A DNA stretch of 45,008 nt from Candidatus Methanophagales archaeon (GTDB lineage: Archaea > Halobacteriota > Syntropharchaeia > Alkanophagales > Methanospirareceae). This document shows positions 1,698-43,009 of the stretch, piece after piece. Numbering within the stretch: position 1 is the stretch's first letter; each line of letters opens with the position of its first letter. Under the pieces are notes generated by a model, which saw only the letters and a list, made by a program, of their open reading frames with translations, ran no database searches and was not told where the DNA came from. Made by a program: the position numbers and the translations under genes. The stretch spans positions 1 to 45,008 of the forward strand of contig JAPVWK010000001.1 of assembly GCA_028572065.1 (NCBI GenBank), given 5' to 3'.

Positions 1698-1875
1698 CGA
1701 TTAATAATTTTTATTCTTTCTATTTTTTCTTGTGCTTAGCCCGGCAATTACGATAACAAACAGTTCTATGCAAAAAAAACATATGCTTTTATATAGATGG
1801 TCGGCTATGTTGAATGTGGTGCAGAAATGACCGAAAACAGTATAGAAGGTTAAATAGCAAAAAGAACGTTAGGAG

Positions 1876-2352
1876 GTGATAAATATGGAAAAACGAAAAA
1901 CTATTATTCTTGCGGCTATTGTAGTAGCAATCTTTGTGACGTCCTTGTCTATGGGCTGCGTGGATGAACAGAAGAAGGAAGAAACAAAAGAGGAACTCGG
2001 TGAGGCTAAAGAAAAAATCGGTGCGGCTGTTGAGAACGTAACAGAGACTAAGGAAGCTCAGAAACTAAAAGAAGAACTCGAAGAAGCTAAAGAAGAAATT
2101 GGAAAAGAAGTCGAAGAGGCTAAAAAGGAAGTCGGAAAGGCTGTTGAGGCTGTAAAAGAGACTGAAGAGAGTAAGGAATTAGCAGAGGTACTCAATGAGA
2201 CCAAAGAAGGAATAAAAGAGACTGTCAATGAAACTAAAGAAGGAATAAAAGAGACTGTCAATGAAACTAAAGAAGGACTAAAAGAGAAAGTCAATGCGAC
2301 CAAAGAAGCAATTAACACTACTGGCAATGAAACTACGGAAACAACACAATAA
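1876..2352 (+). CDS. K/E-rich coiled-coil lipoprotein (lipobox LSMGC), paralog of 3223..3705
   Basis: AGGAGGTGA lies 5-13 nt upstream of the start. The N-terminus MEKRKTIILAAIVVAIFVTSLSMGC is a signal peptide plus lipobox Cys. The rest is low-complexity K/E/T with the NETKEGIKETV repeat. Confidence 0.7.
   Translation: MINMEKRKTIILAAIVVAIFVTSLSMGCVDEQKKEETKEELGEAKEKIGAAVENVTETKEAQKLKEELEEAKEEIGKEVEEAKKEVGKAVEAVKETEESKELAEVLNETKEGIKETVNETKEGIKETVNETKEGLKEKVNATKEAINTTGNETTETTQ
2194..2315 (+). repeat. 33-nt tandem repeat, about 3.5 units, inside the lipoprotein gene
   Basis: aatgaRacYaaagaaggaMtaaaagagaMWgtc repeats head to tail at 2194, 2227 and 2260, with a partial unit at 2293. It encodes NETKEGIKETV three times. 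Confidence 0.9.
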
Positions 2353-2386
2353 GTCGAACTATAAAGGATATAAGGAAGTAAAAGTG

Positions 2387-2436
2387 GGAGAAACTTTTTC
2401 TCCTACTCTTACGTCCTGACGTTTAAGTTTTTTTTT
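2387..2436 (+). terminator. Hairpin plus T-run downstream of the lipoprotein gene
   Basis: Perfect 7-bp stem ggagaaa/tttctcc at 2387-2403, followed by a T9 run at 2428-2436. Oligo-T is the archaeal termination signal. Confidence 0.4.
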
Positions 2437-2535
2437 AAAAAAAATGATATTGCGTATCTTTCCCCCTTTATCCCCTTCTTCTACGTTGACTTTTAGATAC
2501 AGAAAACGGGGCAAACTACAAAAATACAGAATAAG

Positions 2536-2546
2536 TTTTTATACTC
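2536..2546 (+). promoter_or_regulatory. TATA box (TTTTTATACTC) of membrane-protein paralog 1
   Basis: The same 11-mer occurs at 3894-3904 and 5320-5330, each centred about 25-28 nt upstream of the paralog ATG. This implies a leaderless or very short-leader mRNA. Confidence 0.6.
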
Positions 2547-2568
2547 CTAAGCTTTAGCGATGTACATT

Positions 2569-3189
2569 ATGAAAGTAGGCATCGTTATTTCGTATATTCT
2601 GAAGGCACTTATGGTGGTATTGATACTTATAGCAGCCACGAGGGGGCAGTGGTCACTGGCCATTTCCGGTGTTCTTGCTTTACTTATTTGTATGCTACCC
2701 GCAATTGTAAATCGAAGGTACGATGTAGCCTTGCCTCTGGCTCTTGATTGTTTACTTACACTTGCGTTATTGATACATATAGGTGGCCAAGTTACCAGGG
2801 CATATTTTATACTGCCGCATTATGATACGATTGCGCATTTTACTTCTGGTGCTCTTATTGCCTTTATGGCATTTATCGTTATTTATGTCCTGGATAAGTA
2901 CTGGTATGGGCTCACGATGGACACATATGTGATGGCTTTTTTCGTTGTCATAACTGCGATGGCTATAGGCGTAGTCTGGGAATTCATGGAGTGGACAGCC
3001 GATCTATACCTCGGAGCTTGGTCACAAAGGGGTAATCAAGACACCATGGGCGACCTGCTTGTGGATACGTTAGCTGCAATAGTAGTAGCTGTTGTTGGTG
3101 TACTGTTAGTAAAAAGAGGCAAGATGGGCAAGATGACTGATGGCCTGGGTAAATTTGTTGATCCAAAGGCACGAAAGAAGAAACTGTGA
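2569..3189 (+). CDS. Polytopic membrane protein, paralog 1 of 4 (conserved YDT-AHF, WE..EW..D, DTM.DL..D..G motifs); possibly DUF2238/YjdF-like (unverified)
   Basis: The ORF track gives 2560..3189. I prefer the ATG at 2569 because the tacattatgaaa context is shared with paralog 2. The protein is about 206 aa with 5-6 hydrophobic segments and is collinear with the paralogs at 3926, 4649 and 5350. Confidence 0.75.
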   Translation: MKVGIVISYILKALMVVLILIAATRGQWSLAISGVLALLICMLPAIVNRRYDVALPLALDCLLTLALLIHIGGQVTRAYFILPHYDTIAHFTSGALIAFMAFIVIYVLDKYWYGLTMDTYVMAFFVVITAMAIGVVWEFMEWTADLYLGAWSQRGNQDTMGDLLVDTLAAIVVAVVGVLLVKRGKMGKMTDGLGKFVDPKARKKKL

Positions 3190-19776: not shown

Positions 19777-21465
19777 ATGGCAGAAGTTTTGATAAAGAAC
19801 GGAGTGGTTTACGACCCTCTAAATGGCGTGAAGGGCGAGAAGAAGGACATTTGCATTCGTGACGGTAAAGTAGTTGAATCAGTAAAGAATCCGAAGGTGA
19901 TAGACGCCGAGGGGCGAGTGGTAATGCCCGGAGGTGTGGACATACATTCGCACATTGCAGGCGGTAAAGTGAATTCGGGCAGGCTGTTCCGACCAGAAGA
20001 TGGCCGGAAAGGGTTAGAAGCGAAGACGAAAGTTTGCCGGATGCAATCTGGCTATTCTGTGCCGAATACGTTCGCAGTCGGCTATCGGTATGCGAAGATG
20101 GGCTATACGTTCGTGATGGAAGCGGCAATGCCACCTCTGGCTGCAAGACATACGCATGAAGAGCTGGTAGATATTCCGATATTGGATAATGCGGCATTAC
20201 CGCTCCTTGACAACAACTGGATGACAATGGAATATGTAAATGGTGGGGACATAGACCTGCTTGCTGCGTACGTTGCATGGATAATGAAAGCAACAAAGGG
20301 CTTCGGCGTGAAAATCGTGAATCCAGGCGGAACAGAGATGTGGGGCTGGGGAAAGAACTGCAGTTTGAATGATAACGTGCCTACGTTCGATGTTACACCG
20401 GCAGAGATAATAAAAGGTTTAGCAGAAGCGAATGAGAAGTTAGAGATGCCGCATTCTATTCACGTGCATACGAACATGCTCGGTCATCCGGGGAACTTCG
20501 AGATAACAAAGGAGACTTATGACCTCGTGAAAGGCGTAAACACAGTTAAAGACCGGCAGGTTATGCACACTACACATACGCAGTTCCATTCTTACGGCGG
20601 TACGAACTGGGGCGATTTCGAGTCGAAGGCGGATGCAATTGCAGGTTATATAAACCAAAACGACCATGCAACTATTGACATCGGCTCTATAATCCTTGGA
20701 GATACAACGACAATGACCGCAGATGGCCCGATGGAATACAATTTGTATCAGATAACGGGCAGGAAATGGACGAATCACGATGTCGAGCTTGAGACGGGTT
20801 CGGGAATAACACCGTTCTTGTATTCCGGTAAATCACCCGTAAATACTATCCAGTGGGCAATAGGTATGGAATTAGCATTGCTGGTTGAAGACCCGTGGAA
20901 GATTGCGCTCACGACCGACCATCCAAATGCAGGACCGTTCATCGGCTATCCAATCCTTATTTCGATGCTGATGAGCCAGAAGAGGCGTGAAGAGTCGTCG
21001 GCTGATATGCACAAGGTAATATACGATAAGGCGCTGCTGCCTTCTATAGATCGTGAATACAGCCTATATGAGATAGCGATAATAACGAGGGGTATGACTG
21101 CGAAGGCGTTGGGATTGCATGAGCACGGTAAAGGACATCTTGGCGTTGGTGCGGACGGTGACGTGGCGATTTATGATATGTCACCGGAAGAAAGGGATGC
21201 GGGTAAGATACAGAAAGCGTTCTTGAACACGAAATACACGATAAAAGGCGGACAAATAGTAGTAAAGGACGGCGAAGTGGTTGCGACACCGGATGGCAAG
21301 ACGTATTTCGTGACGCCGGAATGTGACGATACGTTGACGGATGAGATGCTGGTCAAGTTGAAGGATAAGTTCGATCATTACTACTCGGTGACCTTCAATA
21401 ATTATCCGGTGCAGGACGATTACGTACCGAATCCATATGAGATAAAAACGCAAATGCGTGGCTAA
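19777..21465 (+). CDS. fwdA: Formylmethanofuran dehydrogenase subunit A (amidohydrolase)
   Basis: 562 aa. IKNGVVYDP...GGVDIHSHI is an amidohydrolase metal motif. The ORF starts 1 nt after the fwdB stop. Confidence 0.9.
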   Translation: MAEVLIKNGVVYDPLNGVKGEKKDICIRDGKVVESVKNPKVIDAEGRVVMPGGVDIHSHIAGGKVNSGRLFRPEDGRKGLEAKTKVCRMQSGYSVPNTFAVGYRYAKMGYTFVMEAAMPPLAARHTHEELVDIPILDNAALPLLDNNWMTMEYVNGGDIDLLAAYVAWIMKATKGFGVKIVNPGGTEMWGWGKNCSLNDNVPTFDVTPAEIIKGLAEANEKLEMPHSIHVHTNMLGHPGNFEITKETYDLVKGVNTVKDRQVMHTTHTQFHSYGGTNWGDFESKADAIAGYINQNDHATIDIGSIILGDTTTMTADGPMEYNLYQITGRKWTNHDVELETGSGITPFLYSGKSPVNTIQWAIGMELALLVEDPWKIALTTDHPNAGPFIGYPILISMLMSQKRREESSADMHKVIYDKALLPSIDREYSLYEIAIITRGMTAKALGLHEHGKGHLGVGADGDVAIYDMSPEERDAGKIQKAFLNTKYTIKGGQIVVKDGEVVATPDGKTYFVTPECDDTLTDEMLVKLKDKFDHYYSVTFNNYPVQDDYVPNPYEIKTQMRG

Positions 21466-22337: not shown

Positions 22338-22615
22338 ATAATAATATTGTTGGTCTATTATTAATAGGGTTAGTACAAATTAAGACATTAAAAGCGAGAG
22401 GTGCTAAAAGGGCTTTAGTGGAGATGATGTTGGAGAATGATGAGTGAATTGATTTGAAAAGATGGGATTTAGTCCAGAGTGTATATGCGAAATATTGCGG
22501 AATACTACGCTGTCCGAGATTAGTGATAAGGCATGAGGATTAAAGCGAATGTGAGACCGAGTATCAAAAAAGTAAGAATAGTTCAGTGTATATCTAATAA
22601 AAGAGGTAAAAAGTT

Positions 22616-23710
22616 ATGACAAAATCCCCCCATCTTGGCATTGACCTCTTTGCAGGTAGTGGTGGTATCTCTTACGGTCTTTTACATGCAGGATTTGACA
22701 TGAGATTAGGAATTGATATTGATCCTAATTTCGCCTTTACTCTGAAAGAGAATAACAAAGATATGAAAGTAGTAGTATCAGACATAAGAGTGTTAGAGCC
22801 CACAGAAGTTGTAAAATCTGCTGGGCTGCGGAAAAAAGATATAGCCCTTATTGTCGGCGGCCCCCCATGCAGGGGCTTTTCTCAATCTAACCGCAGATCC
22901 AGAAATTTGGACAATCCTTTAAACAATCTCTATAAAGAATTCTTTAGATTTATAAGAGTACTTCAACCACAAATCTTTCTTTTAGAGAATGTGGCAGGGC
23001 TTAAAACTCTGCACAAAGGAGCAGTGCTCCAAGATATTTTAAAAATAGGAGAAAAACTTGGATATTATGTTCAGTGGAATATAGTCAACGCAGAAGATTT
23101 CGGAGTGCCTCAGCGGAGGAAGAGGATAATTTTTATAGGGACAAAACAGAAGACCGATAATCTTTTTTATGTGAAAAAAAATAAACCTTTAACTGTTAGA
23201 AGTGCATTGGACGACATGCCTGTTTTAGAGAACGGAAATGTAGTTGATGAATTAAAGTATTCTCGGGACAGTAAACTATCAAAATATCAAAAAATGATGA
23301 GAAAGAATAATGGAAACATCGTTTCAAACAATTTAGTTACAAAAAACGGTAGATTAGTTATGGAACGGTACAACTATATTCCACCCGGCGGAAATTGGCG
23401 AAGCATCCCCACTCAGTTGATGTTTAATTATAAAAACCCAAACAACTGCCACGGCTGGATATATTACCGGCTCAAATGGGATGACCCATCAGTGGTAATA
23501 AGCAATTTCAGAAAAAACATGCTGATACACCCTGAGCAGCACAGGGGTCTTTCTGTCAGAGAGGCGGCGAGATTGCAGTCTTTTCCAGACCACTACGTTT
23601 TTCATGGTCCACTTACATCTCAGCAGCAGCAGGTTGCAAATGCTGTCCCCCCTCTGTTAGCAGAAAAAATTGGGAATAATATAATCAAATATTTGATGGA
23701 GGTGCAGTGA
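22616..23710 (+). CDS. dcm: DNA (cytosine-5)-methyltransferase
   Basis: Motif I is DLFAGSGG, motif IV GGPPCRGFS, motif VI LLENVAGL, motif VIII QRRKRIIFIG, motif IX RLQSFPDHYVF and motif X ANAVPPLLA. GAGGT lies upstream of the ATG. Confidence 0.9.
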   Translation: MTKSPHLGIDLFAGSGGISYGLLHAGFDMRLGIDIDPNFAFTLKENNKDMKVVVSDIRVLEPTEVVKSAGLRKKDIALIVGGPPCRGFSQSNRRSRNLDNPLNNLYKEFFRFIRVLQPQIFLLENVAGLKTLHKGAVLQDILKIGEKLGYYVQWNIVNAEDFGVPQRRKRIIFIGTKQKTDNLFYVKKNKPLTVRSALDDMPVLENGNVVDELKYSRDSKLSKYQKMMRKNNGNIVSNNLVTKNGRLVMERYNYIPPGGNWRSIPTQLMFNYKNPNNCHGWIYYRLKWDDPSVVISNFRKNMLIHPEQHRGLSVREAARLQSFPDHYVFHGPLTSQQQQVANAVPPLLAEKIGNNIIKYLMEVQ

Positions 23711-24633
23711 TGGAATATATAAAGAAAATAATCCAAGCTAATCCTAAAATGAATAAAATTTTCACTATGATAATGGAAAAGGATCAGTATTATTGGAAAA
23801 GATTTACTGGACGACCAGATGAAATTTTTAAATGGCTCCACAATTTTTCTAATGAAGATGAGATTTATCTCGCATTAGTGTTGGCAAACAACACTTTATA
23901 TTATAATCTGGACGAAGTTAGAAGTTTATGGAGAAGAATTTTAATGAACAGGGTAAAATTGTTTTTATTGGATGAAATATTCCGAAATACGGAACTTCCA
24001 GATATTGAAAAATGGTTTCCAGAATATCTTAGAGAAAAATGCATTTTTATAGGATATGGAAAAGCCGGCAAAAGTGGGCAGTCTATGGTTTATTTTTTCA
24101 AACAATCACACAATGTAAAGGGTTTAAAATACATGGAGCTTTTTGAATTTTTGCACAGCACTGAAGATTTCAGCACTAAAGAAACGGTTTTCCTCTTAGA
24201 TGATTTTGTAGGCAGTGGAAATCAGGCAATAACAACCTGGTATAATAATAAAACCAATGACAAAAGTTTTAATGACGTATCTGAGGAAAATCCTCATCTT
24301 AAATTTATTTATCTCGCTCTGATCTGCTTTAAAGAGGGAAAGAAAGTAATTGAAGAGAATACGCCAATGAAGGTTATTTTAGGTGAAGAACTGGATGAAA
24401 GATTTAAGTGTTTTTCTGATGTTTCAGTGATTTACGAAAATCCAAATGAACGGATTGAAGCAAAAAGAGTTATGGAAGAAAAAGGAAGAATGCTATACGA
24501 ATATCCTTTGGGCTATGATAATATGGAGTTGGCGGTAGCCTTTTATCACAATACGCCGAACAACAGTTTGCCAGTAATTTGGAAAAGGAGAGATGATGAA
24601 AGTTGGTATCCTTTATTTGAGCGATTTGAATAG
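23710..24633 (+). CDS. Phosphoribosyltransferase-like (PRPP-loop) protein of unknown function
   Basis: VFLLDDFVGSGNQA (24187-24228) fits the type I PRTase PRPP-binding loop: four hydrophobic residues, an acidic pair, two residues, then S-G-x-x. The N-terminal roughly 110 aa are helical. The start ATG overlaps the dcm TGA (TGATG). Confidence 0.5.
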   Translation: MEYIKKIIQANPKMNKIFTMIMEKDQYYWKRFTGRPDEIFKWLHNFSNEDEIYLALVLANNTLYYNLDEVRSLWRRILMNRVKLFLLDEIFRNTELPDIEKWFPEYLREKCIFIGYGKAGKSGQSMVYFFKQSHNVKGLKYMELFEFLHSTEDFSTKETVFLLDDFVGSGNQAITTWYNNKTNDKSFNDVSEENPHLKFIYLALICFKEGKKVIEENTPMKVILGEELDERFKCFSDVSVIYENPNERIEAKRVMEEKGRMLYEYPLGYDNMELAVAFYHNTPNNSLPVIWKRRDDESWYPLFERFE

Positions 24634-24644
24634 GAGGAAATAAA

Positions 24645-26711
24645 ATGGAGAAACATATAAAAAACAGATTCGATGAAAAAAGACCTTTTGATGTTCTGAG
24701 GGCAGAAGATTTTGGCGGGGACCTTTACGAATTTTATGAGCCGCTTGAAGAATTAATAAGGAAAGTTTCTGGGGTGGATATCACCGGCAGCAGACCCGTA
24801 TTCTTAATCGGAGGGAGAGGCACAGGCAAAACTATGGTGCTGAAATTTTTAAGTTTAGAAATGCAGTTGAAATATTCCATAAAAAATACAGCAAATCAAA
24901 ATAAATCCATAGAAGAATTAAGTGCAGAAGAGATGAAAGCATTTTTAGACAGCACAAAATTTATAGGAATCTTTTTGCATTTTAGAACAACAGAATATGA
25001 TTCTATAAAAGGGGAGGTTGCCCCGTTTTTTAAGCCGTATCTATCTATGAAAGTAGCAGAGCAGATATTCAAATTTCTAATGATTTTTAAATCTTCTGGA
25101 CTGGTGTCCAGCGAGCAGGAAATAAAAATTACGGAATACTTTATCGAGCAGATTAAAGAGCCTACGCCAAGAGCGAAAAATAGTTTTGATGATGCTCTAA
25201 AATTAATTAGGAAAGATATTCTTCCGCAATTTGAAACGATTTTTGAAAAGAGTTCTTATTATTCTATTGATGAAATTAAAAGAGATTTTGGCATTCCGGT
25301 GCTGATTTTCAAAAACATCATTTTTGGTTTACCGGACTTTATATTTAATGAGCTGGATTTTTTGAGAGGAAAGAATATTTTTATCCTTTTAGATGAGTTG
25401 GAATATTTAAATAATTCCCAGAAGCGGTGCATCGGACAGTTGATAAAAGACAGTGATGAAACATCCGTCATATTTAAAGTGGGCTCTCGATATATGCCTG
25501 AAATTCTCCCAGTGGGAGAAAGTAGCGAAGTGCTCCAAGAACCTCATGACTTCAGAAAAATCGATATTACAGATGCACTGAATGCCGCACACAGCGGAAG
25601 AAAAAAAGACTACAACGGACTTATAAGAAAAATATTAAACAAACGCCTATCGAAAAGCAATTTCTTTAAGAGTAGAGGTATAACAAACATAGAACAGTTA
25701 TTTCCGGACCTATCCACCGAAGATGAGGCTGTAGCATTGGTTAACGATCGAGAAAAGCAGTGGGGAAAATTCAAAACCTTCTTAAAAAAATCAAACTCCA
25801 AAGAAGAGATTAAAGATATTATAGACTGCCTTAAGCATCCAAGTAATCCCATTATTGAAAAGCTGAACATGCTTTTATACTACAGGGGGAAATCTCCACA
25901 AGAGATTAAAAAGATGTGTGAAGAGTATCTAAGGGGAGAAAATGAGCAGTATGCTCAACTTTACCAAAAAAATGCCCTCAATCTTTTATTTCAACTATAC
26001 AGTGACTACCGAAGCGAAAAAAAGTATGTCGGAATTGATGTTTTTATCCATTTATCGTCCGGAATAATTCGTAATGCTGTCGAACTCTGCAATCACGCAC
26101 TCAATACAGCATATAATTATGGATATGAACCAGAATCAGGAAAGCCTGTTGAGCCTCTTTGCCAAGATATGGGAGCAAAAAATTACGCTGAACTTGAATA
26201 TGGGGATATAACACGAATTCCTGGCAGCTTGGATTTAGATGATATAACACGAATTCCATTGGGTTTGAAGGTTCAGGATTTTATAAATGAAATCGGCACA
26301 ATTTTTAGGAATCTTCATTTGAATAAGTATTTAGTCGAGCCTGAGCCCACTCATTTTGAAACAACTTACTCAGAAATAACAGGCCAAGCAAAAAAAGTTT
26401 TTGATGCAACTTTAAATTATTCCTACTTGCAGAAAAAACCTCCAATGGACCCTAAAAGCCGCTATGAAACAAAGAAAGGCGACTTTCTTACCAACAGAGT
26501 CTTTGCACCGTACTTTGAAATTTCTTACAGAGTAAGAGGCAGAACCTATATATCCGCTTCTCAAATCTACAATCTTATCATGGGAAATAATGAAGAAAAA
26601 GAGAAGACGCGAAGAAAAATAATCAGAGAAAACACAAAGAAAGAAAAACTTGGAGATGGTATCCAAAAAACCTTAAATCTATATGGGGCGGAAAAAAATG
26701 AGATTGATTGA
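24645..26711 (+). CDS. Large P-loop NTPase (ORC/Cdc6- or STAND-like AAA) with about 430-aa C-terminal extension
   Basis: Walker A is GGRGTGKT (24810-24833) and Walker B is IFILLDE (25377-25397). A strong GGAGG lies 5-9 nt upstream of the ATG. No nuclease motif was recognised. Confidence 0.7.
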   Translation: MEKHIKNRFDEKRPFDVLRAEDFGGDLYEFYEPLEELIRKVSGVDITGSRPVFLIGGRGTGKTMVLKFLSLEMQLKYSIKNTANQNKSIEELSAEEMKAFLDSTKFIGIFLHFRTTEYDSIKGEVAPFFKPYLSMKVAEQIFKFLMIFKSSGLVSSEQEIKITEYFIEQIKEPTPRAKNSFDDALKLIRKDILPQFETIFEKSSYYSIDEIKRDFGIPVLIFKNIIFGLPDFIFNELDFLRGKNIFILLDELEYLNNSQKRCIGQLIKDSDETSVIFKVGSRYMPEILPVGESSEVLQEPHDFRKIDITDALNAAHSGRKKDYNGLIRKILNKRLSKSNFFKSRGITNIEQLFPDLSTEDEAVALVNDREKQWGKFKTFLKKSNSKEEIKDIIDCLKHPSNPIIEKLNMLLYYRGKSPQEIKKMCEEYLRGENEQYAQLYQKNALNLLFQLYSDYRSEKKYVGIDVFIHLSSGIIRNAVELCNHALNTAYNYGYEPESGKPVEPLCQDMGAKNYAELEYGDITRIPGSLDLDDITRIPLGLKVQDFINEIGTIFRNLHLNKYLVEPEPTHFETTYSEITGQAKKVFDATLNYSYLQKKPPMDPKSRYETKKGDFLTNRVFAPYFEISYRVRGRTYISASQIYNLIMGNNEEKEKTRRKIIRENTKKEKLGDGIQKTLNLYGAEKNEID

Positions 26712-27720
26712 AAATTTATCTGTTCTTTCCCTAGAAAAGTTTTTAAGTCCGCCGCGAAAGTGGGATATTTTTATATCCTGTGGGAGCTTTGAAGAGAGAT
26801 GCACGAGAAGCAGTGATATTTTCCCAGATAAAAAAGTGGAAATTGGAACTTCTATAATATTTAATTATAAAGAAACTGACCCAAAAAATAAGAAAGAAGA
26901 ATACATCCAGAGAATAAAATGTAATCTGCAACAGATTTGCAAGTACGTTCATATTTTTGATACAGAGAGCGTCTCTTTACCTTCTGATGGGATAAAAAAG
27001 TTTTTGGTATATCTCAAAGAAAAAGACATTGATTTGAGGGATAAAGAAATAGTTGTTGACATAACTGTATTCACTAAGCCGTATTTTTTTCTCCTTTTTA
27101 AAGTGTTGCAAGAGAAATTTAACCTTCATCAATTTCATATTATTTATACTGAGCCACAGAAATACAAAAGTAGAAACTCTAACAAGAATGAGATTATTTT
27201 GACAGAAGGACTTGATCGTGTCGAATCTAGTCCTGGTTTTGTAGGTTCTTCTATAAATTCCAAAGATGCCTTAATTGTACTTCTTGGATTTGAAGGAAAG
27301 AGAGCAACAGAAGTATTTGATAATATTAACCCGGAATTAACTTTTGCCATCAATGGATTTCCATCATATCAACCTGGATGGCATAAAATAAGCTTGGAAG
27401 CAAACCTGCGCTTTTTAGGAGAATCGGGAGCATCTGATTATTTATTTTTCGCTCCTGCTGTCGATCCGTTTGAAACTAAAAAAGTAGTGTCTCAGATAGT
27501 TAAAGAAATTGAAGAAGACAATCAAGATTTGAATATTGTCATAGCGCCTCTCGGCACTAAGATGCAAGCTTTTGGCGTTTTATTGTATGCTTTTCAAAAT
27601 AACACAACAAAAGTGATTTACCCATTCCCTTCCGTTTATAAAGCGGATTATTCATACAAATATGGACCCACTTGGGTTATTAAGGTTGATTTGAACAAGT
27701 TAAACAGTGAAACAAAATGA
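26698..27720 (+). CDS. Rossmann-like protein of unknown function (CARF/SLOG-like motifs; speculative)
   Basis: 340 aa from the ATG at 26698, with an alternative ATG at 26683. It overlaps the upstream ORF by 14 nt. The pattern is IFISCGSFEER, then VVDITVFTKPYF (D at 27058), then LLGFEGKRA, then IAPLGTKMQAFG, i.e. alternating beta-strand and Gly/Thr-Lys loops. Confidence 0.6.
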   Translation: MRLIENLSVLSLEKFLSPPRKWDIFISCGSFEERCTRSSDIFPDKKVEIGTSIIFNYKETDPKNKKEEYIQRIKCNLQQICKYVHIFDTESVSLPSDGIKKFLVYLKEKDIDLRDKEIVVDITVFTKPYFFLLFKVLQEKFNLHQFHIIYTEPQKYKSRNSNKNEIILTEGLDRVESSPGFVGSSINSKDALIVLLGFEGKRATEVFDNINPELTFAINGFPSYQPGWHKISLEANLRFLGESGASDYLFFAPAVDPFETKKVVSQIVKEIEEDNQDLNIVIAPLGTKMQAFGVLLYAFQNNTTKVIYPFPSVYKADYSYKYGPTWVIKVDLNKLNSETK

Positions 27721-28535
27721 AATTCGTTAAATTCTCAAACAGGTTGTTGATTTGGCATTTTCATATTAAGAAAAAATTTGGATGGCGAGAAACCAAAGAC
27801 CCTTATAAAATCCTCATCTCCGAAATTCTTCTCCACAAGACGGATTCAAAAAAAGTTGAAAAAGTTTATCCAAAATTCATTGACAAATTTCCAACAATAT
27901 ATCATCTCTATCAGGCTGAGCCTGAAGAAATTGATGATCTAATCAAAGATATCGACTTGTTTTACAGGGGACAAAGATTGAAAAAAAATGCAGAACAAAT
28001 TGTTAATCAGTTCAAAGGAAATATTCCTACGCGTAAAGAAGATCTTATGTCCCTTTATGGTGTTGGGGAATATATATCAAATGCAGTTCTGTGCTTTGCA
28101 TTTAAAAAAAGAGTCCCAATTGTTGATACCAATGTAATCAGAGTTTATGGGCGGGTGTTTAATGTTAAATCCCAAAAATCGCGTCCTCATACCGATAAAA
28201 AGATGTGGGATTTTGCAGAAAAAATGCTTCCTAAGGAAAATTACGTGGACTATAATTATGCTCTCCTTGACTTTGCTTCAGATATTTGCAGAGCAAAGAA
28301 TCCTTTATGTGAAATTTGTCCGCTAAAAAGTATATGCGTGTATCGGAAAGAAGGGGGGTATGAGAGCCCAGTGGGAAATAAGGCAGATAGTGTGGATGAT
28401 ATTGCGAGAGGCAAAAAAGTAGCACTATCATCTTTGAAAATGCATGACCTCCGGGTGATAACTGTCGCGAGCATGATTTTCTATGCGAAATGTGAAATGA
28501 AGGGCAAAATTCAGATAAAAGCAGTAAAGAGGTGA
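27717..28535 (+). CDS. HhH-GPD [4Fe-4S] DNA glycosylase of the MutY/Mig/EndoIII family (probable T/U:G mismatch glycosylase partner of the Dcm)
   Basis: DPYKILISEILLHKT resembles the MutY SE..LQQT motif. LMSLYGVGEYISNAV is the HhH motif. VDTNVIRV carries the catalytic Asp. CRAKNPLCEICPLKSIC is a Cys-x7-Cys-x2-Cys-x5-Cys cluster loop. The start overlaps the upstream stop as ATGA. Confidence 0.8.
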   Translation: MKFVKFSNRLLIWHFHIKKKFGWRETKDPYKILISEILLHKTDSKKVEKVYPKFIDKFPTIYHLYQAEPEEIDDLIKDIDLFYRGQRLKKNAEQIVNQFKGNIPTRKEDLMSLYGVGEYISNAVLCFAFKKRVPIVDTNVIRVYGRVFNVKSQKSRPHTDKKMWDFAEKMLPKENYVDYNYALLDFASDICRAKNPLCEICPLKSICVYRKEGGYESPVGNKADSVDDIARGKKVALSSLKMHDLRVITVASMIFYAKCEMKGKIQIKAVKR

Positions 28536-28729: not shown

Positions 28730-29068
28730 ATGAAACTAAAAAAAATCTCAAAGCAGAAAGAATTAACAGGCAATAACCTCCAACAGACGTTATTCACGGA
28801 AGAACTAACAACGACAAACCATCTTTATCCCTCTAACACAACCCGCCAAGAAATAGAGCACAAATTCAAAAATCAGATACACGAAGAGTTGAAATTAGGC
28901 TCCGTGGTCTCATACATAAGAAACAAAATTGTTGTCATCTGTCCCTCCTTATGTCATTACGAAGAATTTAGTGCAATTGAATACGCAATCTTACGAAAAC
29001 TAATAGAGATTAAAGGATTTGAAGTGGACTTTGTTGAGCATGGCTCGACTCTAAAAAGGAATGAATGA
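28730..29068 (+). CDS. Hypothetical protein, possibly a gene fragment
   Basis: 112-aa ORF with no recognisable motif, surrounded by short broken frames. Confidence 0.25.
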   Translation: MKLKKISKQKELTGNNLQQTLFTEELTTTNHLYPSNTTRQEIEHKFKNQIHEELKLGSVVSYIRNKIVVICPSLCHYEEFSAIEYAILRKLIEIKGFEVDFVEHGSTLKRNE

Positions 29069-29341: not shown

Positions 29342-29797
29342 ATGAGAATTGATGTTTTAACTTCTTTGGCGAAAAAAGATAAAACTTTCACCTTCGGAGA
29401 AGCTTTAGAGATAAGTGGTTTACCAAGAGGCCGTCTGAAAAAAGTAATCTACAGATTAGAACAGAGAGGTGCTATTGAACGCATAGAAAAAGGGAAATAT
29501 ATGATCATCCCGCTGGGTGCAGAAAAGGGAAAATACACGTTAAATGAATTCATTATTGGCTCTTTGCTGGTAAATCCTTATTGCATTGCTTACTGGAGCG
29601 CACTAAATTTTTATGGTTTGACCGAGCAGATACCAAATACTGTTTTCTTACAGACAACTGCAAGAAAGAAAAAGCAGGCAACTGAGATCTTTGGTGTCCG
29701 ATACAGGATTGTTAGAATAAAAGAAGAGAAGTTTTTTGGAATCCGAAAGGAATGGATTGAAGACACGCAAGTAAACATCACAGATAAATCTGGATGA
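29342..29797 (+). pseudogene. AbiEi-family antitoxin, C-terminally truncated
   Basis: The N-terminal wHTH (FTFGEALEISGLPRGRLKKVIYRLEQRGAIERIEKGKY) and YWSALNFYGLTEQIPN are AbiEi hallmarks. The ORF stops right after NITDK, where full-length members continue (TD.EKT..D). Confidence 0.65.
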
Positions 29798-29818
29798 CAA
29801 ACTAATGGGTGATTTGGA

Positions 29819-30139
29819 ATGATACCTTCAAGAGAGATAAGAGAGAAAGCGAGGGAGTGTGGTGTTCCCGAAACAACGGTTGAAAGGGACTATGCTCAGA
29901 ATTGGCTGTTAAAATACATCCCAACTAAAACTATAATTCTAAAAGGTGGCACAGGGATAAGAAAACACTATATTGCAAATTACAGATTCTCTGATGACCT
30001 GGACTTCACATTGCTGGAAGATTTAGAGGAAAAGGATTTAGAAGATGAGATCAGTAACGCAGTAAAAGTCGCTAAAGAAGAAAGCGGAATAAAATTTGAT
30101 AATCGGACGCAGAAGAACGCAGATATTCAGGATTTTTAA
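29819..30139 (+). pseudogene. AbiEii/AbiGii nucleotidyltransferase toxin, truncated after about 100 codons
   Basis: VERDYAQNWLL...LKGGTGIRKHYIANYRFSDDLDFT is the DUF1814/AbiEii N-terminal motif. The last 12 codons (NRTQKNADIQDF) are encoded by the left arm of repeat copy B. Confidence 0.7.
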
Positions 30140-30333
30140 TATACGGAATTGACGTAGGAGAGTATTAGAATCTTCTATTGAGTTTATAATAAACTGGGTT
30201 ATAGTGTTCTGGAAAAGGTTTATGAGATTGCAATGACGATATAAACAGGAAGTTAAACGTAAGGCATTTGATTTTCTGCGTAAATCTGCGTAAATCTGCG
30301 TAAATCTGCGTCCTAAATAGTTAGAACTTGTAC
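30099..30333 (+). repeat. Dispersed repeat family, composite copy B (left arm, GxxExxY-gene remnant, right arm with 10-nt units x4)
   Basis: The left arm ataatcggacgcagaagaacgcagat (30099-30124) matches 32903-32925. An internal frame 30182-30244 reads VYNKLGYSVLEKVYEIAMTI*. The right arm tctgcgtaaa x3 + tctgcgtcctaaatagttagaacttgtac lies at 30274-30333. Confidence 0.85.
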
Positions 30334-41041: not shown

Positions 41042-43009
41042 CTAACTCAGAAACTCGATTTTGTCCACCCAGCCGCAATCTGACCCGAAGCTAGTACTGC
41101 CATCTTTTACGTATCGCCACTTCAGCCTATGTGACCCCGAACTTATTTGATAGCTCCTTTGCTGCCAATCCATGTTACCGCTGATTCTATCCTGACCTAT
41201 ACCATCAATATAGAACTCCAGAAAGTCGAAATACTCCTCGGATGAAGTATTCCAGTAGAAGCTTACGGTGCCGGGCCCCGAAACTGTTGTTTGTAGCCAT
41301 GAGTTTTGGTCGTGAGATATAACACCACTCTGTGCGGCGCTATTGTTATAATAAGCTGTTGATGCGTCTCCAAGCCAGTTTGCAACTCCGCCTGTTATCC
41401 ACGAAAGTGCAGCGTTATCCAAGGCATCTTCTAAACTAAACGGTATTGGGACCGGTGCTGGTGGGGACGTTACGATTGGTTCCGGCGTTGACTCCGGTGT
41501 TGGTTCCGGTGTTGGTTCCGGCGTTGGTTCCGGCGTTGGTTCCGGCGTTGGTTCCGGTGTTGGTTCCGGCGTTGGTTCCGGCGTTGGTTCCGGCGTTGGT
41601 TCCGGCGTTGGTTCCGGTGTTGGTTCCGGTGTTGGTTCCGGTGTTGGTTCCGGTGTTGGTTCCGGCGTTGGTTCCGGTGTTGGCTCCGGTGTTGGTTCCG
41701 GTGTTGGTTCCGGTGTTGGTTCCGGTGTTGGTTCCGGCGTTGGTTCCGGTGTTGGTTCCGGTGTTGGTTCCGGCGTTGATTCCGGCGTTGGTTCCGGTGT
41801 TGGTTCCGGTGTTGGTGTTGGCGCTATACCTGAACTGAACTCCACTTTGTCCACCCAGCCGCAATCTAACCCGAAGCTAGTACTGCCATCTTTTACATAT
41901 TGCCACTTCAACCTATGCGATCCCGAACTTATTTGATAGCTCCTTTGCTGCCAATCCGCGTTACCGCTGATTCTATCATGACCTATACCATCAATATAGA
42001 ACTCCAGAAAGTCGAAATGCTCCTCGGATGAAACATTCCAATAGAAGCTTACGGTGCCGGGTCCCGAAACTGTTGTTTGTAGCCATGTGTTTTGGTCATG
42101 AGATATAATCCCGCTCTGTGCTGCGCTATTGTTATAATAAGAAGTTGTTGTCTCTCCAAGCCAGTTCGCCGTTCCGCCTGTTGACCACGAAAGTGCAGCG
42201 TTATCCACTGCCACGCTTAAGCTAACTATTTTTGGCGCAGGTGTTGGTGTTGGCGTTGGTGTTGGTGTCGGTGTTGGTGTCGGTGTTGGTGTCGGTGTTG
42301 GCGTCGGTATTGGCGTCGGTGTTGGCGTCGGTGTTGGCGTCGGTGTTGGCGTTGGTGTTGGCGTTGGCGTTGGCGTTGGCACCAAAGATACTATCTGAAC
42401 ACTCTTCCCTATACTCCCGGAAGTAATCAAAAATTCACCCGGCGGTACTCCTTCAGAACTCAGATCAAGCTCGAAATCACCGTTTGAATCGGCCTGGACT
42501 TTTAGAGCCATGTCCGTGGTCAGATTCAGAGAAGTTACGCTAGCGGCGGCATTGCCGAATACAGAAACATCTTTTTCGCCGTTGATGTCAACGGTTATGC
42601 CATACCACGTCACAGGAAAGGACATGGAAATCGTGGCAGTGCCACCAGTTGCTGTTTTAGGTCCCTCTAAGGGGTACACTACCGTCTGCCAGAATACAGG
42701 ATGTACCGATATTCGGATGTCCTCTACGTTTTCTGTGGTTACCGCGAAGTTTTTATCACCCTCGGGAAAGTGTAACCCGCTGAAATTATGATAATATTTT
42801 CCTTCTGACACCGGTATCGAGAGCACAAACGAGGTCTCTACCCAGACCTCCTCGTTTGGCGATGCCTTCCCTGATAGAGATACCGTTTCCCCCTCTACAA
42901 CCACATCCGGAGTTATGTTCAAGCCCGTTACAGCCGCGCTTGTGATGGTGATGGATACGAGTATTGTCAGAATTAGTGCACTAACCAATGCAAAGATTCT
43001 TGGATTCAT
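41042..43009 (-). CDS. Secreted repeat protein: signal peptide, N-terminal Ig-like region, (TP)n linker, beta-sandwich module, (EPTP)n linker, second copy of the module
   Basis: 655 aa. The module of about 125 aa (AALSW.TGG.ANWLG....[92 protein letters not shown]) occurs twice. There is no C-terminal anchor. Confidence 0.8.
41060..41420 (-). repeat. 361-nt intragenic direct repeat, copy 1 (partner at 41846-42206)
   Basis: My hand alignment of the two 361-nt segments needs no indels and shows roughly 30 mismatches. Confidence 0.85.
41476..41822 (-). repeat. 12-nt tandem repeat (ggttccggYgtt), about 29 units, encoding (EPTP)n
   Basis: Read directly from the sequence. The units differ almost only at one C/T position. 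It generates the spurious alternative-frame ORFs 41436..41864 and 41446..41838. Confidence 0.95.
41846..42206 (-). repeat. 361-nt intragenic direct repeat, copy 2
   Basis: See 41060-41420. Confidence 0.85.
42237..42380 (-). repeat. 6-nt periodic repeat (ggYgtY), encoding (TP)n
   Basis: gcaggtgttggtgttggcgttggtgttggtgtcggt... runs to ...ggcgttggcgttggc. It generates the spurious ORF 42232..42426. Confidence 0.9.

Follow-up and report, generated by a model that had tools for sequence, protein, structure and literature searches.

A methyltransferase-linked PRTase-CE, ORC-CDC6-like ATPase and tandem-CARF gene cassette in an ANME-1 archaeon: probable member of a restriction-modification-like immune system

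Background

The GGCC system with Mig.MthI, carried by the Methanothermobacter plasmid pFV1, is an example of a classical Type II M-R-V cassette. The cassette described here, found on a contig of an uncultured archaeon of the ANME-1 group (Methanophagales), resembles such systems in that a C5-cytosine DNA methyltransferase (MTase) and a Mig-type T:G glycosylase frame a central slot within one coupled operon, and in that M and V are conserved around an exchangeable central segment. Unlike in those systems, the slot holds no PD-(D/E)XK, HNH, GIY-YIG or PLD nuclease; it is occupied by a phosphoribosyltransferase-like protein (PRTase), an AAA+ ATPase and a CARF sensor, and in most relatives of these three genes (hereafter the triad) the MTase is of the N6-adenine (N6A) type and a V gene is missing.

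Further likenesses are found in other defence systems. As in BREX, DISARM and MADS, the MTase is the obligatory partner of a multi-gene NTPase module, no simple restriction nuclease is present and the mechanism of foreign-DNA exclusion is not obvious from the sequence. However, the cassette has no PglZ, BrxC, BrxL, DrmA or DrmB matches, its MADS matches are weak (the P-loop protein to 'mad8', E 0.0025; the N6A MTase of relatives to 'mad2'), and its CARF sensor and PRTase/TIR effector are foreign to those systems. The CARF and SAVED sensors of type III CRISPR-Cas and CBASS share the tandem CARF fold and conserved ligand loops, but the cassette has no linked cyclase or Cas10, its CARF protein carries no fused effector domain, and the conserved partners are the ATPase and the DNA MTase. 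Large P-loop ATPases with exchangeable effectors (here TIR, PRTase or another domain) are also known from STAND/Avs and RADAR RdrA, conflict systems whose swappable effectors are N-terminal; RdrA is among the structural matches of the cassette ATPase, with a lower probability than the ORC matches. The cassette ATPase differs from both in being of the ORC/Cdc6 type, in having no C-terminal repeat sensor and in being coupled to a separate CARF protein and a DNA MTase.

PRTase effectors have been validated in ShosTA, where ShosT disrupts purine metabolism (PMC11961720), in DprA-PRTase (PMC9122126), in DS-32 (bioRxiv 10.1101/2025.01.08.631726) and in Ophion (bioRxiv 10.1101/2025.09.30.679545). The cassette shares with these systems, and with PsyrTA and type III-A3 retrons, a PRTase-like, presumably toxic or effector, enzyme with an intact PRPP loop. 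It differs from them in its PRTase family (PF24390; the match to DS32_1 is weak and C-terminal, E 1e-4, 21.6 bits against a cut-off of 250) and in its partners, which are an MTase, an ATPase and a CARF protein and not DprA, NADAR, a reverse transcriptase or a radical-SAM protein.

Organisation of the locus

The window, i.e. the whole stretch of DNA analysed, comprises 45,008 nucleotides. The five same-strand, coupled open reading frames reported in the preliminary description are all present in it and form a genuine operon (Table 1).

Table 1. Features of the cassette in the window.
Feature	Position	Strand	Remarks
Putative leader/promoter	22512..22615	+	Travels with the cassette; shares nucleotide identity with L005
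C5-cytosine DNA methyltransferase	22616..23710	+	PF00145; proposed self-marking component
PRTase-CE phosphoribosyltransferase-like protein	23710..24633	+	PF24390; proposed effector
ORC-CDC6-like AAA+ ATPase	24645..26711	+	PF24389; proposed DNA-binding sensor/switch
Tandem-CARF (SAVED-like) ligand-sensor protein 'CARF6'	26698..27720	+	PADLOC PDLC01922, AF2/Foldseek fold
Mig-type T:G mismatch glycosylase	27717..28535	+	HhH-GPD + EndIII FeS; accessory to C5 methylation

The gene junctions described earlier were all verified on the sequence. Indeed, (i) the MTase stop overlaps the PRTase ATG at 23710 (TGATG, 23708-23712), a GTG at 23707 being an alternative PRTase start picked by the ORF lister, (ii) an 11-nt gap separates the PRTase stop at 24633 from the ATPase start at 24645, upstream of which lies TAGGAGGAAATAAAATG, containing GGAGG, (iii) the CARF6 ATG at 26698 lies 14 nt inside the ATPase ORF, a start that is the same in all homologs, and (iv) CARF6 and mig overlap in ATGA at 27717-27720. 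The claim of an AT-rich block also holds: the spot counts are exact (G+C 18/60 at 25261-25320, 32/60 at 20101-20160), and the cassette has a GC content of 35.4% versus 43.8% upstream and 46.3% downstream. GC3 is 29-38% in the five cassette genes versus 54-58% in fwdA and purL. The cassette lies in a low-GC island, which adjoins AbiE remnants. Leader and MTase gene (22512-23727) share 86% nucleotide identity with positions 1852-3052 of a related locus (L005); this similarity ends at 22512, with none further upstream.

Protein families and folds

Gene 1 encodes, as had been proposed, a complete C5-MTase (PF00145, E 3e-67; TIGR00675 dcm, E 5e-57; PADLOC MTase_II, E 1e-107), with the DNMT1 catalytic domain and M.HaeIII as relatives of solved structure. 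In gene 5 the predicted HhH-GPD domain and FeS motif were found; among solved structures Mig.MthI is its best match (1kea, E 5e-41), PADLOC matches it to 'Type II nicking endonuclease' (E 7e-43), and it has a C-terminal extension of about 59 aa compared with its relatives of 213-216 aa.

The three middle proteins are not orphans and belong to catalogued, though uncharacterised, families: PRTase-CE and ORC-CDC6-like in Pfam, 'CARF6' and 'PRTase_III-A' in PADLOC. The PRTase (PF24390, E 2.5e-51; PADLOC PRTase_III-A, E 5e-46) does possess the PRPP-binding loop attributed to it, DDFxGSGxQ being invariant across 37 homologs, and this one motif suggests a putative catalytic activity; a PDB search revealed no sequence relative of the family. 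The ATPase matches PF24389 (E 3e-74), with 873 representative clusters in the family at E<=1e-30, and the Walker motifs noted before are GGRGTGKT (A) and DELE (B), both invariant in the family. Its AF2 model (pLDDT 88) has as top Foldseek matches archaeal Orc1/Cdc6 on DNA (2qby) and ORC subunits, RADAR RdrA standing lower in the list, and no nuclease was matched in this search.

The fourth protein (PADLOC CARF6 PDLC01922, E 6e-61) had been called a Rossmann-like unknown. Two Rossmann halves are indeed present, with the conserved loops SxExR/DxTxxxK and GFEGxR/PLGTK, but the protein is not an unknown: its AF2 model (pLDDT 92.9, pTM 0.92) matches with Foldseek probability 1.0 the CARF domains of Cam1, Csm6, Can2 and Card1, and with 0.90-0.99 Cap4/Cap5 SAVED, which identifies it as a tandem CARF sensor. 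The DxTxxTK pattern conforms to [DN]x[ST]xxx[RK], the canonical signature of CARF proteins. No effector domain was found in this protein.

The absence of a nuclease signature was upheld: Pfam, PADLOC, NCBIfam and fold searches all failed to reveal any nuclease domain. The statement that no named system matches stands for the triad as a whole, which has no match in the PADLOC 2.0 system models, NCBIfam (June 2026) or PHROGs and no description in the literature searched.

Conservation and linkage across relatives

Homologs of the middle genes are linked to each other and to MTases. The order and strand of PRTase-CE, ORC-CDC6-like and CARF6 are constant in 90+ related loci that span about 18 phyla, and are kept in 80/80 genome loci wherever the contig allows, the PRTase always being the first gene. 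The suspected tie to DNA methylation was likewise supported: of 72 complete loci, 71 have a DNA MTase no more than 2.5 kb away from the triad, the enzymes falling into three classes (60 gamma-class N6A, 10 C5 and 1 N6_N4). The gamma-class enzymes are immediately adjacent to the triad in 59/60 cases, nearly all directly 3' of CARF6, to which the N6A gene is coupled in most loci. NPPF/Y and motif I are kept in 66/66 N6A partners. Cytosine-MTase-linked triads form a single clade nested within the N6A-linked triads; the MTase class has been displaced. MTase identity does not track triad identity among the relatives compared; therefore, a 'restriction' side that reads the sites of the MTase is hard to explain, unlike in classical R-M.

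Within the clade of the window, a C5-MTase is present in 16/16 informative loci, upstream, downstream or on the opposite strand of the triad. The T:G repair gene (HhH-GPD or Vsr) may be separate, fused to the MTase or absent, and Mig is missing from the majority N6A form. Mig is an accessory of C5 methylation that repairs 5mC deamination, and a Mig or Vsr gene would be carried because the MTase of this clade presumably makes 5mC, which is subject to deamination damage. The proposal of a five-gene unit was too broad, the conserved unit being MTase, ATPase, CARF and effector. In L005 and a second locus (L006), the MTase and mig genes share 86-91% nucleotide identity with those of the window, whereas the triads, homologous and with the same order and coupling, share 30-37% protein identity; the triad thus sits in an exchangeable slot.

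The effector is also swapped. Two loci have no PRTase and consist of [TIR-ORC]-CARF6-MTase (L094) or [N-terminal domain-ORC]-CARF6-MTase (L095): a TIR or other domain fused to the ATPase N-terminus replaces the PRTase, while ATPase, CARF and methylase stay. PRPP chemistry, earlier seen as the basis of the module, is therefore not essential to it. In the other loci the flanking genes vary and include integrases, resolvases, AbiEii, AriA, Borvo and Type I S genes, and some variants also contain a coupled ThyX-like gene. Triad genes are split in L003, L034, L047 and L080; in some loci, among them L086 with its IS insertion, the triad is decayed beside an intact MTase.

Interpretation and alternative explanations

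The gene families, folds and linkage, together with the MTase displacement, the effector swapping, the genomic context and the precedent of validated PRTase effectors, make it rather probable that the cassette is a member of a conserved, horizontally mobile, methyltransferase-linked, restriction-modification-like immune system. Counting against this reading, besides the discordance of MTase and triad identities and the lack of a PDB relative for the PRTase family, no adjacent MTase is present in one of the complete loci (L030), no hypervariable target-recognition segment was found in the ATPase, no enzyme known to make a CARF ligand is encoded among the genes of the operon, and searches of viral contigs and PHROGs turned up no relatives.

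The apparent absence of phage-borne copies would also fit a selfish addiction or epigenetic module without antiviral role, in which MTase and triad ensure post-segregational killing or maintenance of mobile islands, or regulate replication in a methylation-linked manner through the ORC-like protein. The cassette is mobile and found in variable islands, it includes an ORC/Cdc6-like DNA-binding ATPase, and triads lacking an MTase are almost never seen, as a toxin/antidote pair would predict. We nevertheless regard this as unlikely: TIR effector swapping and a CARF sensor are immune-system hallmarks, known defence genes are among the neighbours, and the ATPase scores far under the cut-off of TIGR02928, the model of real Orc1/Cdc6 initiators. 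Since classical R-M systems combine addiction with defence, the two readings are compatible. The linkage statistics contradict a chance juxtaposition, i.e. an orphan Dcm-Mig repair pair with an unrelated three-gene insertion. The conservation of M and V with L005 and L006 around a differing middle could suggest it, but that middle is the homologous triad, the C5-MTase is constant in the clade and sister clades carry other MTases, which leaves this explanation extremely improbable.

Dpd and Dnd modification modules contain ATPase and transferase pairs, and the PRTase, ATPase, CARF protein and MTase could likewise install a complex base modification (e.g. phosphoribosyl-derived), with any restriction partner encoded elsewhere. 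PRTases form N-glycosidic bonds with PRPP, the coupled ThyX-like genes would suit such hypermodification, and the pairing of the DS-32 PRTase with a NADAR glycohydrolase hints at a nucleic-acid adduct (bioRxiv 10.1101/2025.01.08.631726). It is, however, quite unlikely, because the m6A, m5C and N6/N4 MTase classes are interchangeable, which points to a generic self-mark and not to a step in a single chemical pathway; moreover, TIR can replace the PRTase, and the CARF sensor has no obvious biosynthetic role. Very unlikely, too, is an ancillary of type III CRISPR-Cas or CBASS in which CARF senses cyclic oligoadenylates from a Cas10 or CD-NTase encoded elsewhere and switches on the PRTase, the methylase being incidental. 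The matching PADLOC models bear the names of CRISPR accessory proteins (PRTase_III-A; CARF6, which derives from the CARF census) and the fold matches cOA-binding CARF and SAVED proteins, but no CRISPR array was found in the window, the commonest families of 130 flanking ORFs include no Cas family, and the only conserved neighbour, the DNA MTase, is left unexplained.

Proposed mechanism

For the immune-system reading, we infer a methylation-gated defence built on a constant core, which would comprise the DNA MTase, the ORC/Cdc6-like AAA+ ATPase and the tandem-CARF protein, and on a variable effector at or before the ATPase N-terminus (a separate PRTase-CE here, a fused TIR or other domain elsewhere). 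The MTase would mark host DNA, as 5mC in the clade of the window, with Mig or Vsr alongside; the DNA-binding ORC-like ATPase could then sense unmodified incoming DNA and be switched on in an ATP-dependent manner; the tandem-CARF protein may bind a small nucleotide-type ligand and set the activation threshold; and the PRTase, with its intact PRPP/ribose-5-phosphate site, would execute the response through nucleotide/PRPP chemistry. One option is metabolite depletion or poisoning, which is what has been shown for the ShosT PRTase; the other is phosphoribosylation of a nucleic-acid target. The response would proceed without DNA cleavage.

In summary, the triad is apparently a widespread, uncharacterised gene set nearly always paired with a DNA methylase, and because of this pairing it probably discriminates self from foreign DNA in the manner of a restriction system.

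Gene content and genomic context of the window cassette

The five same-strand genes of the cassette (22616-28535) were found exactly as the preliminary description had reported them, together with the junctions that couple them: a TGATG overlap (23708-23712), a GGAGG motif and an 11-nt gap ahead of the ATG at 24645, an ATG at 26698 located 14 nt inside the preceding gene, which is a start common to all homologs, and an ATGA overlap (27717-27720). The first gene, in which the full C5-MTase motif set had been noted there, indeed encodes a complete C5-cytosine DNA methyltransferase (MTase; PF00145, E 3e-67) and lies directly upstream of the three middle genes. The fifth gene belongs, as claimed, to the HhH-GPD/[4Fe-4S] glycosylases, its best relative of solved structure being Mig.MthI (1kea, E 5e-41), a T:G mismatch glycosylase that ranks before MutY. 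This mig ORF is 272 aa long in the window versus 213-216 aa in close relatives, and similarity to the related locus L005 stops at 28354; the C-terminal ~59 aa (28355-28535) may be a read-through or recombination scar.

The three middle genes, hereafter the triad, encode (i) a PRTase-CE protein (PF24390, E 2.5e-51, 175 bits for a cut-off of 27; PADLOC 'PRTase_III-A'), in which the PRPP-type loop DDFxGSGxQ is invariant across 37 homologs, and whose family profile gave nothing significant against PDB sequences, (ii) an ORC-CDC6-like AAA+ ATPase (PF24389, E 3e-74, 251 bits for a cut-off of 27) with invariant Walker A and B motifs, and (iii) a tandem-CARF protein (PADLOC 'CARF6--CARF_CARF_CARF', PDLC01922, E 6e-61), for which no Pfam family scored above threshold. 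The AlphaFold2 model of the ATPase (pLDDT 88) matches archaeal Orc1/Cdc6 on origin DNA and eukaryotic ORC subunits, with the RADAR ATPase RdrA further down the list at a weaker probability. Conservation is spread over the whole length of this protein, and a hypervariable target-recognition segment was not found; the direct repeat inside its gene is an in-frame 12-aa duplication (DITRIP...DITRIP) absent from most homologs. The model of the CARF protein (pLDDT 92.9, pTM 0.92) matches the CARF domains of Cam1, Csm6, Can2 and Card1 and the SAVED domains of Cap4 and Cap5. Both of its halves are Rossmann-like and have a conserved pair of ligand loops, SxExR with DxTxxxK in the first half and GFEGxR with PLGTK in the second; the protein is thus a pseudo-dimeric sensor that lacks an effector domain. 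The DxTxxTK pattern previously noted in this gene is the classical CARF signature.

The block had also been described as AT-rich, and its GC content is 35.4% versus 43.8% and 46.3% in the flanking regions; at third codon positions, it is 29-38% versus 54-58% in fwdA and purL. The low-GC stretch runs on to ~30.2 kb and includes further features (see the table). Judging by the protein clusters of the flanking housekeeping genes, the contig belongs to ANME-1 / Methanophagales. Neither a tRNA nor convincing flanking direct repeats were found at the island boundaries. Three metagenomic contigs of 5.4-6.8 kb (L087-L089) carry an identical ATPase, and their ends lie at most a few hundred bases from the edges of the cassette, which suggests that strain-level presence/absence or repeats interrupt assembly at the island boundaries. 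Elsewhere in the window, 12-nt tandem arrays within a minus-strand ORF imply a tetrapeptide-repeat protein.

Coordinates of features in the window and in related loci or contigs compared with its cassette (handles beginning with L)
Sequence	Position	Feature	Remark
Window	26205-26221 / 26241-26257	exact 17-nt direct repeat, 36 nt apart	inside ATPase gene
Window	28730-29068	112-aa ORF	no family match; kept downstream of mig in near-identical metagenomic contigs (L089), partly in L006
Window	29342-30139	truncated AbiEi (151 aa) and AbiEii (106 aa) genes	type IV toxin-antitoxin remnants, same low-GC island as cassette
Window	30275-30311	perfect 10-nt tandem repeat TCTGCGTAAA x3.7	right edge of low-GC island, just before purL 3' end
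Window	41476-41816 and 42246-42376	12-nt tandem arrays, 28 and 11 copies, 94% matches	inside minus-strand ORF 41042-43009
L081	431-2260	Mig-type glycosylase fused to C5-MTase	
L082	156-1949	Mig-type glycosylase fused to C5-MTase	
L086	6058-10678	truncated triad with rve-family transposase	
L094	144-4659	[TIR-ATPase]-CARF6-N6_N4 MTase	no PRTase
L095	345-5003	[~190-aa hydrophobic/helical domain-ATPase]-CARF6-N6_N4 MTase	no PRTase
L083	1-5930	distantly related C5-type cassette beside PLDc_2 nuclease gene	
L091	11326-14049	distantly related C5-type cassette beside PLDc_2 nuclease gene	
L001	14508-15132	ThyX-type gene	~1.4 kb beyond CARF gene
L008	12971-13594	ThyX-type gene	
L081	6254-6877	ThyX-type gene	
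L082	5954-6577	ThyX-type gene	
L085	11036-11662	ThyX-type gene	
L086	11146-11823	ThyX-type gene	

A conserved triad linked to a DNA methyltransferase

Scanning a single genome per species with the ATPase alignment yielded 80 loci, whose ORFs were searched with iteratively built HMMs, and the triad unit was defined from 90+ loci. Essentially all 80 loci keep PRTase, ATPase and CARF in this order and on one strand; the triad is complete in 68 of them, the remainder being cut by contig ends or having split genes. The window cassette shows the three family matches above threshold, the same order, strand and coupling, and an adjacent MTase. Clustering of the flanking ORFs revealed one more conserved gene (340-415 aa), located directly after the CARF gene with stop and start codons usually overlapping. 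It encodes a gamma-class N6-adenine (N6A) DNA MTase (N6_Mtase/Eco57I; full-length match to PADLOC MTase_II), in which NPPF/NPPY and motif I are kept in 66 of 66 copies. An MTase lies at most 2.5 kb from the triad in 71 (60 N6A, 10 C5 and 1 N6_N4) of the 72 loci whose sequence extends far enough to either side; one complete locus has none within this distance. The linkage of the middle genes to one another and to methyltransferases, on which the preliminary proposal of a methylation-associated defence system depended, is therefore conserved.

No conserved neighbour other than the MTase was detected, the flanks being heterogeneous and composed of housekeeping genes along with integrases, resolvases, AbiEii, AriA, Borvo, SoFic and Type I S subunits. 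The triad family is rare but broad: the ATPase forms 873 clusters at E<=1e-30 among 1.84 billion representative proteins searched by profile, and the family occurs in ~18 bacterial and archaeal phyla. A metagenome scan with the single ATPase gave two loci only, no relative was present among the 600 pattern matches listed in a scan of viral contigs, and the triad had no match in PHROGs. Furthermore, some loci are decaying. In L086, a transposase separates the PRTase and ATPase genes, and two C5-MTases and a Vsr gene are intact beside the truncated triad; split triad genes were found in L003, L034, L047 and L080. These patterns fit a costly or toxic module, comparable to the restriction part of a restriction-modification (R-M) system, that is protected by the MTase.

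Exchange of partners and effectors

When the ATPase sequences are placed in a neighbour-joining tree, the triads linked to a cytosine MTase all fall into a single clade that lies among the N6A-linked ones. Throughout this clade the triad is kept, but its partners move. The MTase gene is upstream of the triad in the window, L001, L003-L005, L083, L085 and L092, downstream in L091 and L093, and on the opposite strand in L002 and L090. The T:G repair gene is of HhH-GPD type in the window, L001, L005, L006, L083, L091 and L093, of Vsr type in L002, L004, L085, L086 and L092, and absent from L090; in L081 and L082, the glycosylase and the MTase are encoded by a single ~600-aa ORF directly upstream of the triad. 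Because the repair gene varies in this way, Mig most plausibly accompanies C5 methylation, repairing deaminated 5mC, rather than being a sensing or effector component.

The MTase gene and mig of the window (22512-23727 and 27768-28354) are 86-91% identical in nucleotide sequence to those of L005 (1852-3052 and 7032-7618) and of L006. Over the ~4 kb between them, the triads of L005 and L006 share 30-37% protein identity with that of the window and no nucleotide similarity, the breakpoints lying ~17 nt into the PRTase gene and ~50 nt into mig. Conversely, the closest triads (ATPase 72-77% identical) adjoin MTases that are only ~50% identical. The MTase and repair genes being conserved and the triad divergent, the triad occupies an exchangeable slot in a frame formed by these two genes, in agreement with the earlier idea that the middle genes take the place of the endonuclease in such cassettes. 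Whereas co-divergence is expected of restriction and modification genes of one specificity, MTase identity does not track triad identity in the C5 clade, and a co-phylogeny of the two was rejected.

Some loci have a gene for a thymidylate synthase of ThyX type (Pfam Thy1, E 1e-54) next to the triad, in most of them directly after the CARF gene; it was found only with cytosine-MTase variants, and neither with the N6A form nor in the window. The distantly related cassettes of L083 and L091 each stand beside a PLDc_2 nuclease gene together with an unknown gene of ~610 aa, with a 1140-aa DEAD helicase gene in addition in L083; this may be another defence module recurring beside the cassette.

The position of the proposed effector is exchangeable too. 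A few of the 873 ATPase clusters carry N-terminal extensions. Among the best 150 representatives no CARF-ATPase or PRTase-ATPase fusion was found; the extensions seen there were TIR or unknown ones at the N- or C-terminus. In L094 and L095, the ATPase is fused to a TIR and to a hydrophobic/helical domain, respectively, and the PRTase gene is missing. ATPase, CARF protein and MTase thus make up the constant core, with the PRTase in a variable effector position. Validated PRTase-like effectors from further defence systems are ShosT, which disrupts purine metabolism (PMC11961720), and those of DprA-PRTase (PMC9122126), DS-32 (bioRxiv 10.1101/2025.01.08.631726) and Ophion (bioRxiv 10.1101/2025.09.30.679545).

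Comparison with known systems

The window cassette shares with Type II M-R-V systems its layout and the combination of a C5-MTase with a Mig.MthI-like glycosylase for VSP-type repair. It differs from them in its middle genes, in which the preliminary description had seen no nuclease signature: none was detected by Pfam, PADLOC or NCBIfam for the three proteins, nor by Foldseek for the ATPase and CARF models, and a classical Type II R-M system was rejected on this ground. Gene 3 could be thought to encode an Orc1/Cdc6 replication initiator, and the resemblance of its predicted fold to Orc1/Cdc6 is real; the initiator model TIGR02928 gave 12.9 bits for a cut-off of 181, and the gene belongs to a low-GC mobile cassette, not to an origin-proximal housekeeping region. 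The CARF domain and its ligand-binding loops are common to gene 4 and to type III CRISPR-Cas, of which the cassette might be an ancillary effector, and the sensor is also like that of CBASS signalling. The cassette differs from both in having neither cas linkage nor a cyclase: the window contains no CRISPR array, the top families of 130 flanking ORFs in related loci include no Cas family, and the models of PADLOC and Pfam detect no CD-NTase among the five proteins.

BREX, DISARM and MADS are likewise based on an MTase and an ATPase, but the signatures of PglZ, BrxC, BrxL, DrmA, DrmB and mad1-8 are missing from the cassette apart from a weak P-loop match to mad8 (PADLOC, E 0.0025). Assignment to ShosTA, PsyrTA, DprA-PRTase or DS-32, suggested by the PRTase, was rejected as the operon has no DprA-like, RecQ-like or NADAR partner and DS32_1 reached 21.6 bits for a cut-off of 250. 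Pfam and PADLOC placed the middle proteins in catalogued families (PRTase-CE, ORC-CDC6-like and CARF6) and matched no model of a described system; the earlier claim that the composition corresponds to no named system stood, and the proteins themselves were not new to the databases. PADLOC 2.0 holds the triad families as accessory-type models only and not as a system, and NCBIfam (June 2026) gave no significant match for the three families. A description of the triad or of its link to MTases was not found in full-text searches of the literature. The label CARF6 presumably derives from a CARF census (Makarova et al. 2020), and that census may already mention the PRTase/ATPase neighbourhood. The cassette can be regarded as a variant of methylation-linked immunity and may well prove to be more.

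Proposed functioning and significance

The cassette is probably an R-M-like defence system. Since its obligatory MTase is exchangeable across classes, methylation would act as a generic self-mark. The ORC-like ATPase would be the likely DNA-contacting switch, the tandem CARF protein a gate responding to a small ligand, and the PRTase (or TIR) the executor, whose target would be the pools of PRPP, nucleotides or NAD, or a nucleic-acid acceptor, with no involvement of a nuclease. This scheme has weak points: the operon encodes no enzyme that would make the CARF ligand, and the reshuffling of MTase and triad relative to each other leaves a shared specificity unaccounted for. The lack of a hypervariable recognition region in the ATPase and the one locus with no MTase count against it as well.

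More tentatively, the family could represent an uncharacterised and widespread class of epigenetic immunity, a 'restriction without cutting', in which methylation would supply the self/non-self logic known from R-M systems, and an ORC-like ATPase with a tandem-CARF nucleotide sensor would link it to interchangeable metabolic effectors (PRTase for PRPP/nucleotides, TIR for NAD) instead of a nuclease. In a hypothetical variant of this reading, the CARF protein would monitor a product of methyltransferase or effector activity, which would explain how MTases of three unrelated classes serve the same core. Should the proposed function hold, the cassette would be a new architecture among methylation-based immune systems and would join epigenetic self-marking (R-M, BREX) with signalling of the CARF/TIR/PRTase type and its metabolite-depleting effectors (type III CRISPR, CBASS, Thoeris, ShosTA), which have so far been studied separately. 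The mechanistic question would then be how methylation status is conveyed to a non-nuclease effector, given three interchangeable MTase classes, and it is directly testable because triad hosts include cultivable Paenibacillus, Ralstonia, Massilia, Sphingomonas and Stenotrophomonas. For ANME-1 archaea, the analysis documents a mobile, recombining cassette, probably of defence, common to DPANN archaea and anaerobic bacteria.
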